DNA from: Rhodoferax sp. OV413
Lineage (GTDB): Bacteria; Pseudomonadota; Gammaproteobacteria; Burkholderiales; Burkholderiaceae_C
DNA length: 64,000 nt
Assembly: GCF_945881795.1 (NCBI RefSeq)
Contig: NZ_CAMCVG010000001.1
Location: 7,488-71,487 of the forward strand
Direction of reading: 5' to 3'
The translations under genes were made by a program, and so were the position numbers. The stretch's first letter is position 1. Each line of letters starts with the position of its first letter. Of the stretch, positions 45,112-55,283 are shown one piece after another. Below the pieces are notes generated by a model that was not told where the DNA came from, did no database searches, and worked only from the letters and a program-made list of their open reading frames with translations.

Positions 45112-46341
45112 ATGGCAAAAGAATACAAAGATCTCGTCGTCGGGCTGGACATCGGCACCGCCAAGGTCATGGCGGTGGTGGCGGAGATCATGCCCGGCGG
45201 CGAGCTCAAGCTGGCCGGCTTTGGCGTGGCGCCAAGCAACGGGCTCAAGCGAGGCGTGGTGGTCAACATCGACGCCACCGTGGCCAGCATCCAGCAGGCC
45301 CTCAAAGAAGCCGAGTTCATGGCCGACTGCAAGATCACGCGCGTCTACACCGGCATCACCGGAAGCCACATCCGCGGCCTGAACTCCAGCGGCATGGTGG
45401 CGGTGAAAGACCGCGAAGTGACCCAGGCCGATGTGGCCCGCGTGGTGGAGACTGCCAAGGCCATCAATATTTCGACCGACCAGCGCCTGCTTCTGGTGGA
45501 GCCGCAGGAATTCATCATCGACGGGCAGGACGTGCGTGAGCCCATTGGCATGAGCGGCATCCGCCTCGAGGCCAAGGTGCACATCGTGACCGGCGCCCAG
45601 AGCGCGGCGGAAAACATCATCAAGTGCGTGCGTCGCTGCGGCCTCGAAGTTGAGCAGCTCATGCTCAACCCCCTGGCCAGCAGCCTGTCAGTGCTCACCG
45701 CGGACGAGCGCGAACTCGGCGTGGCGCTGGTGGACATCGGCGCGGGCACGACGGATGTGGCCATCTTCACCAACGGCGCCATCCGCCACACCGCGGTGAT
45801 TCCGATTGCCGGGGACCTCATCACCAGCGACATCGCCATGGCGCTGCGCACCCCGACCAAGGACGCCGAAGACATCAAGGTCGAGTCGGGCCATGCCAAG
45901 CAGCTGCTGGTGGACCCCGAGATGCAGGTCGAAGTACCCGGCCTGGGCGACCGCGGCCCGCGCATGCTCAGCCGCCAGGCGCTGGCCGGCGTGATTGAGC
46001 CGCGGATAGAAGAAATCTTCTCGCTGGTGAACCAGGTCATGCGCGACTCCGGCTACGAGGAGGTGCTCTCCAGCGGCATCGTGCTCACCGGTGGCAGCTG
46101 CATCATGCCCGGCATGGTCGAGCTGGGCGAAGACATCTTCTTGAAGCCGGTGCGCCGCGGCGTTCCCAAATACAACAGCGCCCTGTCCGACATGGTGGCC
46201 CAGCCCCGCGCCGCCACGGTGATGGGCCTGCTCGAAGAGGCCCGGATTGCCCGCATGCGCGGCTACAAGGTGGCGCAGAAGTCCGGCTCCATGAAATCAG
46301 CGTTCAGTTCCGTCAAGGACTGGTTTGTAGGGAACTTTTAA
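45112..46341 (+). CDS. ftsA: Cell division protein FtsA
   Basis: 409-aa actin-like ATPase (VVGLDIGTAKV, DIGAGTTDVAIF), with a C-terminal amphipathic helix. Confidence 0.95.
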   Translation: MAKEYKDLVVGLDIGTAKVMAVVAEIMPGGELKLAGFGVAPSNGLKRGVVVNIDATVASIQQALKEAEFMADCKITRVYTGITGSHIRGLNSSGMVAVKDREVTQADVARVVETAKAINISTDQRLLLVEPQEFIIDGQDVREPIGMSGIRLEAKVHIVTGAQSAAENIIKCVRRCGLEVEQLMLNPLASSLSVLTADERELGVALVDIGAGTTDVAIFTNGAIRHTAVIPIAGDLITSDIAMALRTPTKDAEDIKVESGHAKQLLVDPEMQVEVPGLGDRGPRMLSRQALAGVIEPRIEEIFSLVNQVMRDSGYEEVLSSGIVLTGGSCIMPGMVELGEDIFLKPVRRGVPKYNSALSDMVAQPRAATVMGLLEEARIARMRGYKVAQKSGSMKSAFSSVKDWFVGNF

Positions 46342-46522
46342 TCATGCCAAACACCGCACTGAACACCTGCCCCTGCACGCTGTTGCCCCGCTTTCACTGG
46401 GGCCTGATCCGGGTCATCGTGCACCGAGGCCTGGACCCCCCGGGCCGGCCAAGCCCCCATGCAAGTCCCCCTTTGTTGGAATTAAGTCGTCGAAGAATTA
46501 TTGGAATGAGGAGATAACGAAT

Positions 46523-46846
46523 ATGCAAGCCCACATACAGGCCGAAATTCGCGATGCCAACCTGGCGTACTTGAACATGGCCCAGAACCTGATCCGTCAG
46601 GACCTGCCGTCTGCGCTGAAGATTCTGGGGATGTCGGAAGACGCCGCAGAAATCATCAAGACGCTGTCAGAGAGCCAGAAGGCCAGTATCGCTTCCAGCG
46701 ACATCCTGCTCTGCCGCTTCGGCGTCAGTGACGACGTGGTCTGGGGATTGCTCACCAGCCACCCCGCGCCCAAGCCCGAGGCCGAGCGCGCCACCCGACT
46801 GCTGGCCGACATCCTGCTCGCAGGCCGCATGACCATGGCCGCCTGA
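46523..46846 (+). CDS. FlhD-like small protein (orphan, no flhC partner adjacent)
   Basis: 107-aa ORF with RBS GAGGAGA 7 nt upstream. By-eye alignment to E. coli FlhD residues ~6-75: IRDANLAYLNMAQNLIRQDLPSALKILGMSEDAAEIIKTLSESQKASIASSDILLCRF versus [58 protein letters not shown]. Confidence 0.6.
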   Translation: MQAHIQAEIRDANLAYLNMAQNLIRQDLPSALKILGMSEDAAEIIKTLSESQKASIASSDILLCRFGVSDDVVWGLLTSHPAPKPEAERATRLLADILLAGRMTMAA

Positions 46847-46897
46847 GCTGCCACACACCCCTTTATTCAATTAGTTAGCGTTTCAAGGAGAGAGAGC

Positions 46898-48136
46898 ATG
46901 AGCATCGAAATGATCGAAGAAGAAACCTTCAACCAAGGCACACAGATCAAGGTCATCGGCGTGGGCGGCGGCGGCGGCAACGCGGTCGAGCACATGATCG
47001 TGACCGGTGTGAACGGCGTGGAATTCATCTGCGCCAACACCGACGCGCAGGCCCTGAGCCGCAGCTCGGCGCACAAGACAATTCAGCTAGGCGTCACCGG
47101 CCTTGGCGCCGGCAGCAAGCCCGACAAGGGCCGCGAAGCCGCTGAACAAGCTGAAGCCGCCATCCGCCAAGCCATCGAAGGCGCGCACATGCTCTTCATC
47201 ACCGCCGGCATGGGCGGCGGCACCGGCACCGGCGCTGCCCCCGTGATTGCCAAAGTCGCCAAAGACATGGGCATCCTGACCGTGGGCGTGGTGACCAAAC
47301 CCTTCGACTTTGAAGGCGGACGCCGCATGAGCAATGCCGAATCCGGCTTGTCGGATCTTGAAGCCAATGTGGACTCGCTCATTGTGGTGCTGAATGAAAA
47401 GCTGCTCCAAGTGTTGGACGAAGATGTGGCGCAGGAAGCCGCATTCGCCCATGCCAACGACGTGCTGAAGAACGCCGTTGGCGGGATTGCCGAAATCATC
47501 AACGTCAAGGGCGAAATCAACGCCGACTTTGAAGACGTGCGCACCGTCATGGGTGAACCCGGCAAGGCCATGATGGGCACGGCGACCGCCAGCGGCCCTG
47601 ACCGCGCCCGCATCGCCGCCGAGCAGGCAGTGGCCTGCCCGCTGCTCGAGGGCGTGGACCTCTCCGGCGCCAAGGGTGTGCTGGTGCTGATCACTGCCTG
47701 CAAGGGATCCCTGAAGCTCAAAGAATCCAAGGTGGCGATGGAGACCATCCGCGCCTGCGCATCGGCCGATGCCCATGTGATCTACGGTACCGCCAACGAC
47801 GACACGCTGGGTGACGAAATCCGCGTCACCGTGATTGCGACCGGCCTCAGCCGCAACGGCACCCGCCGCACTGCGCCCCCACTGCAGGTGCTGCGCACCG
47901 GCACCGATAACGTGCCCTTTCATGTGCCCACCATCACCGCACTGGCCAGTCCCGCAGGCGCCGGCCACAGCCTGGGCGGCGGCTCAGCAGCAGCCCAGCC
48001 CGACTACGGCAGCATGACCACCCCGAGCGTCTGGCGCCACAACCGCACCCAGGCAGCCGCCAAGGTGGACGCCCTGTCTACCGGCGGCATGGAAGACATT
48101 GAGATTCCCGCCTTCCTGCGCAAGCAGGCGGATTGA
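46898..48136 (+). CDS. ftsZ: Cell division GTPase FtsZ
   Basis: [25 protein letters not shown] tubulin signature, C-terminal [13 protein letters not shown]. 412 aa. RBS AAGGAGAG. Confidence 0.95.
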
Positions 48137-48182: not shown

Positions 48183-49106
48183 GTGCTTAAACAAAGAACC
48201 CTGAAGTCCCTCACCCGCGCCGTTGGCGTGGGCCTGCACAGCGGCCAGCGTGTCGAGATCACCTTGCGGCCTGCTGCGCCGGACACCGGCATTGTGTTCA
48301 GGCGGGTGGACTTGCCGCAGGCGCCGGATATTGCGGTGTCGGCCCAGGCGGTGACCGACACCCGTCTGGCGTCGACGCTGTCGTGTGGCAACGCCAAGGT
48401 GCACACGGTGGAACACCTGATGTCAGCCTGCGCCGGCCTTGGTGTGGACAACCTGTATGTCGACATTACCGCCGAGGAGGTGCCTATCCTTGACGGCTCG
48501 GCCGCCTCGTTTGTGTTCCTGCTGCAAAGCGCGGGCATCGAGATGCAAAACGCGCCGCGGCGCTTCATCCGCATCAACCGGCCGGTGGAGGTGCGCGAGG
48601 GCGAGGGCGCTAACGCCAAGTGGGCGCGGCTCGACCCCTTTCATGGCTACAAGCTCAGCTTCGAGATCGACTTTAACCATCCCGCCGTAGATTCCACTGG
48701 ACAGCGGGTGGAGTTTGACCTGAGCACCGGCAGCTATTCGCGCGACATTGCCCGCGCCCGCACCTTCGGATTCACCAAAGACGTGGAGATGATGCGCGCC
48801 AACGGCCTGGCGCTCGGTGGCGGGCTGGACAACGCGATCGTCATGGATGACTACAAGGTCCTCAACACCGACGGACTGCGTTATGACGACGAGTTCGTGA
48901 AGCACAAAATCCTGGATGCCATGGGCGACCTCTACATCGTGGGCAAGCCCCTGCTGGCGGCCTACAGCGCGCGCCGCTCGGGCCATGCGCTCAACAACAA
49001 GCTGCTGCGCGAACTGCAGGCTCACCCCGAGGCCTGGGAGGTCGTGACCTTTGAAGACGTGCGGCAGGCGCCTCAGGGCTTTGCCCAGCCCGTGCGGGCC
49101 TGGTAA
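48183..49106 (+). CDS. lpxC: UDP-3-O-acyl-N-acetylglucosamine deacetylase
   Basis: GTG start giving (M)[23 protein letters not shown], matching the E. coli MIKQRTLKRIV N-terminus. HTVEHL, and [11 protein letters not shown]. Confidence 0.9.
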
Positions 49107-53500: not shown

Positions 53501-54130
53501 TCAGGCCGCCGCCGGCAGACCCATGAAGGCGGCGAAATCGGGCAAAAAGGCCTCAAAACCGGTGAAGGCATGGTCGCCGCCCTCGGTCACGGTGACGCTC
53601 GTGTGGGCGTAACGGGCATGCATCTCGCGCCAGTCCAATACCTCGTCGCCCTTGGCAATCAGGGTCCGGTAGCGCGCGGGCTCACGGAGGACCCCGGCCT
53701 GCAGGTCGCGCAGCTCCTGCACATAGTGGGGCAAAAAGAAAAAGCGCTCCGCGGGGGCATGCCACTGGTGGTTCTCGCCGATGTAGCGTCCCAGATCGCG
53801 CGCGGGGTCGACCGCCGGGTTGATCAGCATGGCCAGGCAACCCGTGGCCTCGGCGATGTGGGTGGCATAAAAGCCGCCCAGCGAGGAACCGACCACGGCC
53901 ATGCGGTCCCGCGGCCAGGCTGAAATTCCGTCTAATAAAAGCGTCATGGCCTCACGCGGTGAAGGCGGCAACTGGGGACACCACCAGTGCACGGCCGGGT
54001 GGTGCTGCGCCATATAGGCCGCCATCTGCCGGGCCTTGTGCGACTGCGGCGAGGAGCGAAAGCCGTGCAGGTAGAGCAGGTGGGTGATGGAAGTGCCGGT
54101 CATGGTGGGCTTGGGGATAATCGGGTCCAT
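53501..54130 (-). CDS. YqiA/YcfP-family alpha/beta hydrolase (esterase)
   Basis: LLYLHGFRSSPQSHKA, nucleophile elbow VGSSLGGFYA, C-terminal GGDHAF. An alternative start is at 54103. Confidence 0.65.
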   Translation of the reverse strand: MDPIIPKPTMTGTSITHLLYLHGFRSSPQSHKARQMAAYMAQHHPAVHWWCPQLPPSPREAMTLLLDGISAWPRDRMAVVGSSLGGFYATHIAEATGCLAMLINPAVDPARDLGRYIGENHQWHAPAERFFFLPHYVQELRDLQAGVLREPARYRTLIAKGDEVLDWREMHARYAHTSVTVTEGGDHAFTGFEAFLPDFAAFMGLPAAA

Positions 54131-55283
54131 GTCTTATCGTTTCGGAAGAGTCTCGCTGCGCAAGCGTATCGCGCCCTGGTTTGCGGGGTTTGACGGGCCG
54201 CTGGCCTTCGCGGTGTTCATGCTGGCCAGCGCGGGGCTGCTGATCATGTATTCCTCGGGCTACGACCACGGCACCCGTTTCGCCGACCATGCCCGCAACA
54301 TGCTGATCGCTGGCGCCATCATGTTTGTGGTGGCGCAGGTGCCGCCGCAGCGCCTGATGATGGTGGCCGTGCCGCTCTATATGGTGGGCGTGGCGCTCTT
54401 GATTGCGGTGGCGGTGTTCGGTATTACCAAAAAAGGCGCCCAGCGCTGGGTGAATGTGGGCGTGGTCATCCAGCCCAGTGAGATTCTCAAAATCGCGATG
54501 CCGCTGATGCTGGCCTGGTGGTTCCAGAAGCGCGAGGGGCAACTGCGGGCGCTGGACTTTGTGGTGGCCGGCGTACTGCTGGCTGTTCCGGTGGGGCTGA
54601 TCATGAAGCAGCCCGACCTGGGCACCGCCCTCTTGGTACTGGCGGCCGGTATGTCGGTGATATTTTTCGCCGGCATGAGCTGGAAGCTGGTCATCCCGCC
54701 ACTGGTCATCGGGGTGCTGGGGGTGTTTTTGCTTGTGTTCTTCGAGCCGCAGCTCTGTGCCGACGGCGCGCGCTGGCCGGTTTTGCACGACTACCAGCAG
54801 CAGCGCATCTGCACCCTGCTGGACCCCTCGCGAGACCCGCTGGGCAAGGGCTTTCACATCATTCAGGGCATGATCGCCATCGGCTCCGGCGGCGTGCTGG
54901 GCATGGGCTTTATGCAGGGAACGCAGACGCACCTGGAGTTCATTCCCGAGCGCACCACCGACTTTATTTTCGCGGCCTTTTCCGAAGAATTCGGGCTGCT
55001 GGGCAATGCTGTCCTGATCGGCGCCTTTGTGTTCCTGATCATGCGGGGGCTGGCCATTGCGCTGGAGGCACCCACCCTGTTTTCCCGACTGCTCGCGGGG
55101 GCTGCGACCATGATCTTTTTCACCTATGCGTTTGTGAACATGGGCATGGTCAGCGGCATCCTCCCGGTGGTGGGGGTTCCACTGCCGTTCATCAGTTACG
55201 GCGGCACCGCCATGGTCACGCTGGGGCTGGCTCTGGGCATTCTGTTTTCGATTTCCAATTCCAAGCGGCTGGTGCAGAGCTGA
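54129..55283 (+). CDS. rodA: Peptidoglycan glycosyltransferase RodA (SEDS)
   Basis: Aligns by eye along its whole length with E. coli RodA (GAQRWVNVGVVIQPSEILKIAMPLMLA, DPLGKGFHIIQGMIAIGSGG, TDFIFAAFSEEFGL, PVVGVPLPFISYGGTA). It is distinct from the ftsW in the dcw cluster. Confidence 0.85.
   Translation: MSYRFGRVSLRKRIAPWFAGFDGPLAFAVFMLASAGLLIMYSSGYDHGTRFADHARNMLIAGAIMFVVAQVPPQRLMMVAVPLYMVGVALLIAVAVFGITKKGAQRWVNVGVVIQPSEILKIAMPLMLAWWFQKREGQLRALDFVVAGVLLAVPVGLIMKQPDLGTALLVLAAGMSVIFFAGMSWKLVIPPLVIGVLGVFLLVFFEPQLCADGARWPVLHDYQQQRICTLLDPSRDPLGKGFHIIQGMIAIGSGGVLGMGFMQGTQTHLEFIPERTTDFIFAAFSEEFGLLGNAVLIGAFVFLIMRGLAIALEAPTLFSRLLAGAATMIFFTYAFVNMGMVSGILPVVGVPLPFISYGGTAMVTLGLALGILFSISNSKRLVQS

Follow-up and report, generated by a model that had tools for sequence, protein, structure and literature searches.

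Adjacency of ftsA and ftsZ is among the most conserved of all bacterial gene arrangements. In the DNA analyzed here, a stretch of 64,000 nucleotides from Rhodoferax sp. OV413 (contig NZ_CAMCVG010000001.1, positions 7,488 to 71,487 of the forward strand, hereafter the window), these two genes are held apart by a third, which encodes a 107-aa protein of the FlhD family. The gene is embedded in the division and cell wall (dcw) cluster, has no flhC beside it, and is maintained by purifying selection in related genomes. Judged by sequence and gene context, it is a second copy of FlhD and not the FlhD that serves the flagellar system of the cell. We call it the type-1, or dcw-embedded, FlhD paralog. 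The features of the locus, all on the forward strand, are the following.

45112-46341, + strand: ftsA, 409 aa, an open reading frame (ORF) with Pfam SHS2_FTSA/FtsA matches on the identical gene in metagenome locus L100
46508-46514, + strand: Shine-Dalgarno sequence GAGGAGA of the paralog, 8 nt before its ATG
46523-46846, + strand: the type-1 FlhD paralog, 107 aa, Pfam FlhD
46898-48136, + strand: ftsZ, 412 aa, an ORF with Pfam Tubulin/FtsZ_C matches on the identical gene
48183-49106, + strand: lpxC, 307 aa, last gene of the dcw block, from a gene call with a Pfam LpxC match on the identical contig L100

The dcw cluster of the window follows the Burkholderiales-type order mraY, murD, ftsW, murG, murC, ddl, ftsQ, ftsA, ftsZ, lpxC, with gene identities taken from the ORFs of the window and from gene calls with Pfam matches on sequence-identical metagenome contigs. 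Upstream of ftsA, genes overlap by 1-4 nt (for example murD/ftsW, ftsW/murG, murC/ddl and ddl/ftsQ), and the spacing is 25 bp between murF and mraY and 23 bp between ftsQ and ftsA. Between the ftsA stop (46341) and the ftsZ start (46898) there are 556 bp. An earlier, sequence-only reading of this DNA had drawn attention to the tight packing of the upstream genes, the 25-bp murF-mraY gap, and the wide ftsA-ftsZ spacer with its 107-aa ORF and GAGGAGA motif. Its coordinates were exact throughout, and ORF coordinates and gene calls confirmed the packing. The same reading described the gene as an orphan at its locus, and tblastn of the 64-kb window found no flhC alongside it or anywhere else in that stretch; ftsZ stands downstream of the paralog instead, and the window contains no second flhD. 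In an alignment of relatives, AGGAG or AAGGA is kept at the position of the paralog’s ribosome-binding site (RBS). The FtsA of the window is 87-98% identical to FtsA across all loci that carry the type-1 gene.

The paralog is a true member of the FlhD family with an FlhD fold. It matches the Pfam profile PF05247 (FlhD) with 82.4 bits against a cutoff of 27 (E=3e-23), with residues 3-103 aligned to profile positions 4-100 of 102. Searches with phmmer against the FlhD chains of the PDB gave E=7e-13 for Cupriavidus necator 8J56 and E=6e-7 for E. coli 1G8E, and 24 of 64 aligned residues are identical in the 1g8e alignment, including the Cys of the LLCRF/LVCHF segment. An AlphaFold2 (AF2) model of the paralog has a predicted local distance difference test (pLDDT) score of ~80 for residues 1-60 and 67 overall, the C-terminal third being of low confidence. 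The ten best Foldseek matches of this model in the PDB are FlhD chains only, with template modeling (TM) scores of up to 0.93, and its N-terminal 64 residues superpose on 8j56_A and 5hxg_B with a root-mean-square deviation of 1.1 Å. The resemblance to FlhD that had been seen by eye, at about one third identity with a conserved Cys, and for which a Pfam search and a structural comparison had been proposed as checks, is therefore real by profile, by pairwise alignment and by fold.

Membership in the family does not extend to the equivalog level. With the NCBIfam FlhD equivalog NF002783 the paralog scores 71.4 bits, under the cutoff of 90. Databases label type-1 proteins ‘flagellar transcriptional regulator FlhD’, a label that probably misstates the role of the paralog. 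An origin from DUF2857 or from the FlhDC-like proteins of mobile elements was considered and rejected, as DUF2857 gave 18 bits against a cutoff of 36.8 and no mobile-element genes lie nearby; the paralog sits among chromosomal dcw genes, and neither integrase nor conjugation genes occur in the annotated stretch around it. Diverged members of the FlhD/FlhC family have been re-used outside flagellar regulation, as in SetCD of SXT/R391 elements, AcaCD of IncA/C plasmids and BisDC of ICEclc. These are pairs of D and C proteins on mobile elements, whereas the paralog has no C partner and a neighborhood free of mobile genes as far as it is annotated.

In every relative with the dcw copy that could be checked, a canonical flhD is present as well. 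Four assemblies with the paralog encode a second FlhD, 55% identical to it and followed by flhC (dcw and canonical loci, respectively, L008/L073, L009/L065, L010/L077 and L011/L074). In Rhodoferax sp. AWA17, the canonical genes lie ~1 Mb from the dcw copy; their locus (L074, on a 1.72-Mb contig) reads fliC-fliC-flhD-flhC-motA-motB-cheY-cheZ. More broadly, the paralog is 54-61% identical to the FlhD proteins of Comamonadaceae. The sequence-only reading had noted that no flhC follows the gene, and had counted an FlhC-like partner encoded elsewhere, with a purely flagellar phenotype, against its own idea. This absence is confined to the locus, since in all four relatives that could be checked a canonical flhDC is found elsewhere, in a flagellar and chemotaxis locus. 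It is from this coexistence, seen in four of four checkable relatives, that we take the dcw copy to be an additional FlhD.

The paralog is narrow in distribution and solidly conserved. A word-indexed search that covered 5.8 billion proteins recovered about eight clusters of the type-1 protein at 90% identity, and profile search brought the FlhD family to 4,803 proteins in all. When 1.84 billion 50%-identity representatives were searched with HMMER, 350 FlhD-family representatives were returned, one cluster of which is type 1; the next-best match to this cluster is a canonical FlhD at 54% identity. A scan of one genome per GTDB species yielded at least 565 FlhD-encoding stretches, and type-1 proteins, 68-88% identical to that of the window, are encoded in 6 of the best 80, which were analyzed further. 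Their hosts are Rhodoferax spp., a Comamonadaceae chromosome (OZ239150.1), a betaproteobacterial metagenome-assembled genome (MAG) and two ‘Hylemonella’ MAGs. Locus classes were assigned by tblastn with FtsQ, FtsA, FtsZ and FlhC. All six type-1 genome loci have the arrangement ftsQ-ftsA-ORF-ftsZ. Setting aside one locus treated below (L057), flhC lies directly downstream of flhD in 71 of the 73 other FlhD loci, and the remaining two end too early to tell. The type-1 layout recurs in metagenome contigs (nine further ones, three for P0006, and five encoding an identical protein), and the synteny of ftsA, paralog and ftsZ is constant wherever both flanks can be read, a few short contigs showing one flank. 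In total, type-1 synteny is found in the window and in loci L001-L003, L008-L013, L088-L096 and L100-L104. That all related loci recovered have the ORF at this position goes far beyond what chance would produce.

The six genome copies of the paralog are exactly 107 codons long with zero indels, and the pairwise ratio of nonsynonymous to synonymous substitution rates (dN/dS) is 0.06-0.19 at dS of ~1-3. Because of this ratio and the unchanged length, we conclude that the paralog is a functional gene under purifying selection. In the same genomes dN/dS is ~0.01 for the canonical flhD and 0.01-0.12 for ftsA, and the paralog evolves ~10 times faster than its canonical counterpart. A comparison of the ftsA-ftsZ spacer across Burkholderiales, suggested along with the sequence-only reading, has thus shown the ORF to be conserved and selected in relatives. 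Three of the recovered copies are frameshifted. Two of them, L095 (at ~790-800) and L096 (at ~300-310), have a run of seven A where intact copies have six; in the third, P0008, on a 144-kb JGI contig, the frame shifts after W74, toward the C-terminus, and reads into the ftsZ RBS. All three are probably homopolymer, sequencing or assembly errors, with L095 and L096 lying in low-coverage metagenome contigs, but they may alternatively reflect slippage or occasional decay. A pseudogene was rejected on the dN/dS values.

We next consider which residues this selection has retained. The six dcw type-1 copies were compared with 95 diverse FlhD representatives in E. coli numbering, with a column taken as conserved at 70% or more. 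The type-1 copies keep 21 of the 24 family-conserved columns: I10, N14, L15, Y17, L18, A21, Q22, an Arg aligned to E. coli V26, D28, A32, L36, G37, A43, L49, Q53, A58, L63, L64, C65, D71 (E. coli S71) and L78. As judged from the alignment, these are essentially the buried dimer core together with Cys65. Conserved positions with a fixed replacement in all six copies are R35 (to I/L), R68 (to G) and L20 (to M); among the 95 representatives, R35 is present in 75% of the family and R68 in 82%. Further fixed replacements affect H91 (to L), F/Y34 (to K/E), N61 (to D/E), K/R56 (to S/N/H) and K/R29 (to L/M). Within alpha1 and alpha4, L19 is replaced by N, P/L51 by E and V/M55 by A/T, and the face that forms the ring has turned polar. 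Campos and Matsumura (2001) reportedly identified D28, F34, R35 and N61 as FlhC-interaction residues. The interface argument made here rests on family-wide conservation and on the description of the alpha1/alpha4 face in E. coli, where the two FlhD dimers of the D4C2 ring meet through it and where YdiV binds (PMC3510510). Both anti-activators, YdiV and STM1697, bind this surface of FlhD (PMC3510510, PMC5622320). A preserved dimer core beneath a remodeled surface indicates a protein that would still dimerize and whose higher-order partnerships would be altered.

Set against the FlhD of FlhD4C2 (E. coli 1G8E/2AVU; C. necator 8J56), the paralog shares PF05247, the all-helical fold, the dimer core and Cys65. 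Unlike it, the paralog has no adjoining flhC, lies inside the dcw operon, falls below the equivalog cutoff and coexists with a canonical FlhD. Three features of an FlhD4C2 subunit are accordingly missing from the paralog: the operon partner, the equivalog score and the conserved surface residues.

The locus set aside above, L057 of Rhodoferax sp. KJN.1, has a different arrangement. Its ftsA-ftsZ spacer is 144 bp, and a 108-aa FlhD gene begins 27 nt past the ftsZ stop, followed by a GC-rich hairpin and lpxC, with no flhC there. The same layout is found in two further assemblies, both MAGs, at 89-90% protein identity, giving at least three assemblies in total. We refer to these genes as type 2.

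L057 3989-4315; L097 2235-2561; L099 987-1313: type-2 flhD, in the order ftsZ-flhD-lpxC

Types 1 and 2 occur in one bacterial group, and both are orphan flhD genes that adjoin ftsZ at the 3' end of the dcw cluster. Type 2 differs from type 1 in lying downstream of ftsZ and in its canonical-like residues: its proteins keep F34, R35, N61, R68 and H91, are 73-80% identical to the other FlhD proteins compared, and nest within the canonical FlhDs of Comamonadaceae. With these five residues kept, type-2 FlhD is presumably still able to partner FlhC. Type 1 is monophyletic in 100 of 100 bootstraps and is grouped with type 2 in 0 of 100. A single origin of the two types was rejected on this result, with the proviso that type 1 sits on a long branch and long-branch effects are possible. 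On these trees, type 2 is a second, independent lineage of dcw-embedded flhD. Its existence suggests that dcw-linked expression of an FlhD-type subunit could itself be under selection.

The rest of the spacer in the window also contains conserved sequence, as follows.

46344-46517, + strand: micro-ORF of 57 aa (TAATCATG), starting 2 nt past the ftsA stop and present in all type-1 loci
46475-46506, + strand: conserved non-coding leader block GTTGGAA ... TCGTCGA ... ATTATTGGAA, upstream of the paralog RBS
46847-46897, + strand: paralog-ftsZ junction, 51 bp, with the ftsZ RBS AAGGAG at 46885-46890 and no terminator

In close relatives the micro-ORF is 34 aa long, and the window is without their stop at codon 35. 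Its core is PRxCWGLIRVxVHRGLDPP (about 46383-46442), and its coordinates in relatives are 3821-3925 in L008, 3822-3926 in L011 and 2566-2688 in L057. Although no Pfam family matches it, the micro-ORF is probably translated, because its substitutions are frame-specific: the ratio of nonsynonymous to synonymous differences (pN/pS) is 0.23 in frame and 1.7-2.2 out of frame. Loci without an FlhD insert have a weaker counterpart after ftsA, W-R-W-R-C-x-x-P-P (WRWRC..PP), which suggests that the micro-ORF may predate the insertion.

The leader block, ~30 nt long, has columns that are nearly invariant in an alignment of loci whose coding dS is >1, and it contains a loose direct repeat, TTGGAA/TTGRAT, ~23 nt apart. 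A weak internal promoter and a binding site for a protein are candidate roles. A promoter and terminator scan of 45900-47100 found no sigma-70 consensus promoter and no terminator. A structured leader was rejected, as RNAalifold gave ~0 kcal/mol and no conserved RNA fold for the leader of the paralog; a leader duplicated along with the canonical flhD gene was rejected as well, the two leaders being unrelated. Rfam contains no known RNA element matching 46000-47200, the one weak hit (IRES_Bip, 18.9 bits against 40, on the minus strand inside ftsA) being due to chance. The context of the ftsZ RBS, TTCAAGGAG, is common to the ftsZ leaders of loci without the insert. Since the genes share a strand and short junctions and no terminator is found between them, we infer that the paralog is co-transcribed with ftsA and ftsZ. 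With no terminator between ftsA and ftsZ, transcripts that reach ftsZ from upstream would pass through the paralog.

Two further observations concern the neighborhood of the dcw cluster. Four of the genomes that carry the paralog have a 99-aa gene after lpxC that matches Pfam Flg_bb_rod, an N-terminal flagellar basal-body rod motif, with 29.5 bits (cutoff 20.7). It is located at 8795-9094 in L001 (equivalent to 6795-7091 in L011), 6721-7017 in L008, 6881-7174 in L009 and 5177-5470 in L010. This is a second small gene of flagellar derivation, placed where the dcw block ends; the window lacks it and has ruvC next to lpxC. The window in turn has a second gene of the FtsW/RodA/SpoVE family, 384 aa, at ~54129-55283 on the + strand (17607-18761 in L100), ~5 kb past the dcw cluster. 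It lies between a UPF0227 hydrolase gene and pmbA/tldD, with no adjoining PBP2 gene in the annotated stretch.

Our view of what the paralog does starts from what FlhD can do. FlhD by itself binds no DNA, the DNA-binding surface of the complex being on FlhC (PMC3510510; ChIP-seq in PMC4183435), and ChIP-seq found no FlhC-independent binding of FlhD (PMC4183435). Its contribution is to maintain the ring and to help recruit RNA polymerase (PMC3510510, PMC5622320). Because FlhD has no DNA binding of its own and works only when assembled with FlhD and FlhC, we favor an action of the paralog at the protein level. For the same reason it is unlikely to be a direct transcription factor for ftsZ, so the regulator of ftsZ expression that the sequence-only reading had envisaged is not the likeliest mechanism. 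Taken broadly, and with an alternative activating subunit included, protein-level action on the FlhD/FlhC system appears somewhat more likely than not. The narrower proposal, that the paralog is a neofunctionalized orphan that modulates this system, is our preferred one, and we put it forward tentatively, at a little under an even chance.

Under this modulator model, the paralog would be made together with FtsA and FtsZ from the dcw operon and would form mixed or non-productive dimers with the canonical FlhD, or alternatively would engage FlhC in a way that does not sustain the D4C2 ring. The activity of the master regulator would then track expression of the division operon, coupling flagellar genes to the state of growth and division. 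The effect could be inhibitory, with the paralog as a poison subunit similar to an anti-FlhD4C2 factor, or it could be a change of specificity, with the paralog as an alternative subunit. Known anti-FlhD4C2 factors act on ring integrity or on RNA polymerase recruitment, YdiV/RflP and STM1697 by binding FlhD and FliT by binding FlhC (PMC3510510, PMC5622320). If the modulator model holds, the paralog resembles them as a protein-level modulator, and by analogy it may work most like such a factor or like an alternative subunit. These factors are EAL-like proteins or chaperones without any sequence or fold relationship to the paralog, and they respond to nutrient or host signals, whereas the proposed input for the paralog is transcription of the division operon. 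The type-2 lineage lends the model some support, as a canonical-looking FlhD that presumably remains FlhC-competent has there come under the control of the dcw cluster. Several points weigh against the model. Heterodimerization of FlhD and the paralog is predicted from conserved core residues in proteins that are 55% identical; the changed surface could equally reflect a paralog that no longer touches FlhD or FlhC and has acquired a new partner; and a position by ftsZ in two independent lineages fits a role in division just as well.

The main rival to the modulator model, and the closest to what the sequence-only reading had in mind, is a protein specific to division: a small dimer of helices with the FlhD fold, whose partner would be a divisome component (FtsZ, FtsA or a Z-ring regulator) or which would otherwise tune the level or activity of FtsZ, independently of FlhC. 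This is consistent with the interruption of a normally adjacent gene pair in every carrier, with a second lineage that has flhD directly after ftsZ, and with an evolutionary rate that far exceeds that of the canonical gene while remaining constrained; the loss of conserved basic and hydrophobic surface residues (R35, R68, H91, L19) would also fit a change of partner. However, operon position speaks of co-expression and not of function, a full flhDC system is present in all checkable carriers, and the type-2 copy keeps the canonical residues, which points to FlhC and not to the divisome. FlhD alone, moreover, lacks DNA binding, and we know of no FlhD-family protein that acts without FlhC. Pruess and Matsumura reportedly claimed in 1996 and 1997 that FlhD regulates cell division in E. 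coli, an idea that shares the link between FlhD and division timing but concerned the canonical FlhD and not a dcw-embedded paralog. The sequence-only reading had called on this older work, and that support falls away, the link having been refuted by Siegele et al. 2010, as cited in PMC4183435. On balance we regard a division-specific protein as a serious contender that is nonetheless unlikely. Slightly more doubtful still is a bolder version, in which these bacteria use the FlhD fold as a true part of their cell cycle: produced at a constant ratio to FtsA and FtsZ, the paralog would act on the divisome or on the FtsZ level, or serve as a checkpoint that links assembly of the new-pole flagellum to cytokinesis. 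If this were true, selection for such coupling would explain why two lineages independently captured flhD beside ftsZ, one upstream and one downstream, and the module may also include the 34-aa micro-ORF that follows ftsA.

An alternative activating subunit would instead form a D'/C complex with FlhC, with altered promoter specificity, and drive a non-flagellar regulon or a subset of flagellar genes during growth. It shares ground with the modulator model, but its effect would be of opposite sign. D28 and the whole dimer core are kept, FlhC is encoded in the same genomes where relatives could be checked, and SetCD and AcaCD illustrate that the family can be re-targeted. With R35 and R68 replaced, residues found in 75-82% of diverse FlhDs, with the alpha1/alpha4 face turned polar and with a score under the equivalog cutoff, we consider this variant distinctly unlikely. 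The two remaining possibilities are both very improbable. One is a non-functional passenger or decaying duplicate that survives in an essential operon, to which the narrow clade and the three frameshifted copies might point; the dN/dS values, the indel-free 107 aa in six genome loci and the conservation of both RBS and leader speak strongly against it. The other is that the gene is the organism’s only FlhD, relocated away from flhC. Although a 64-kb window devoid of flhC and of a second flhD is what such a move would leave, an intact flhD-flhC pair lies elsewhere in every checkable relative, conserved residues have been lost, and the equivalog cutoff is missed.

To our knowledge, FlhD has been known only as an obligate partner of FlhC, and a paralogous FlhD acting as a poison subunit has not been described before. 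No relevant paper on an flhD in the dcw cluster or on an orphan FlhD paralog was found in the searchable literature, in keeping with the impression of the sequence-only reading that the arrangement is undescribed. A conserved, selected and partner-less FlhD paralog between two division genes is unexpected, and the type-2 lineage adds to this, making the locus relevant to the fields of flagellar regulation and of the dcw operon alike. Should the paralog modulate FlhD4C2, it would be the first case of a paralog-type poison or alternative subunit for this master regulator, and flagellar synthesis would be coupled in a simple way to the expression of division genes. An action on the divisome would instead give the FlhD fold a function not seen before. 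In both cases the gene offers a handle on the old and so far discredited notion of a connection between motility and division through FlhD-type proteins.

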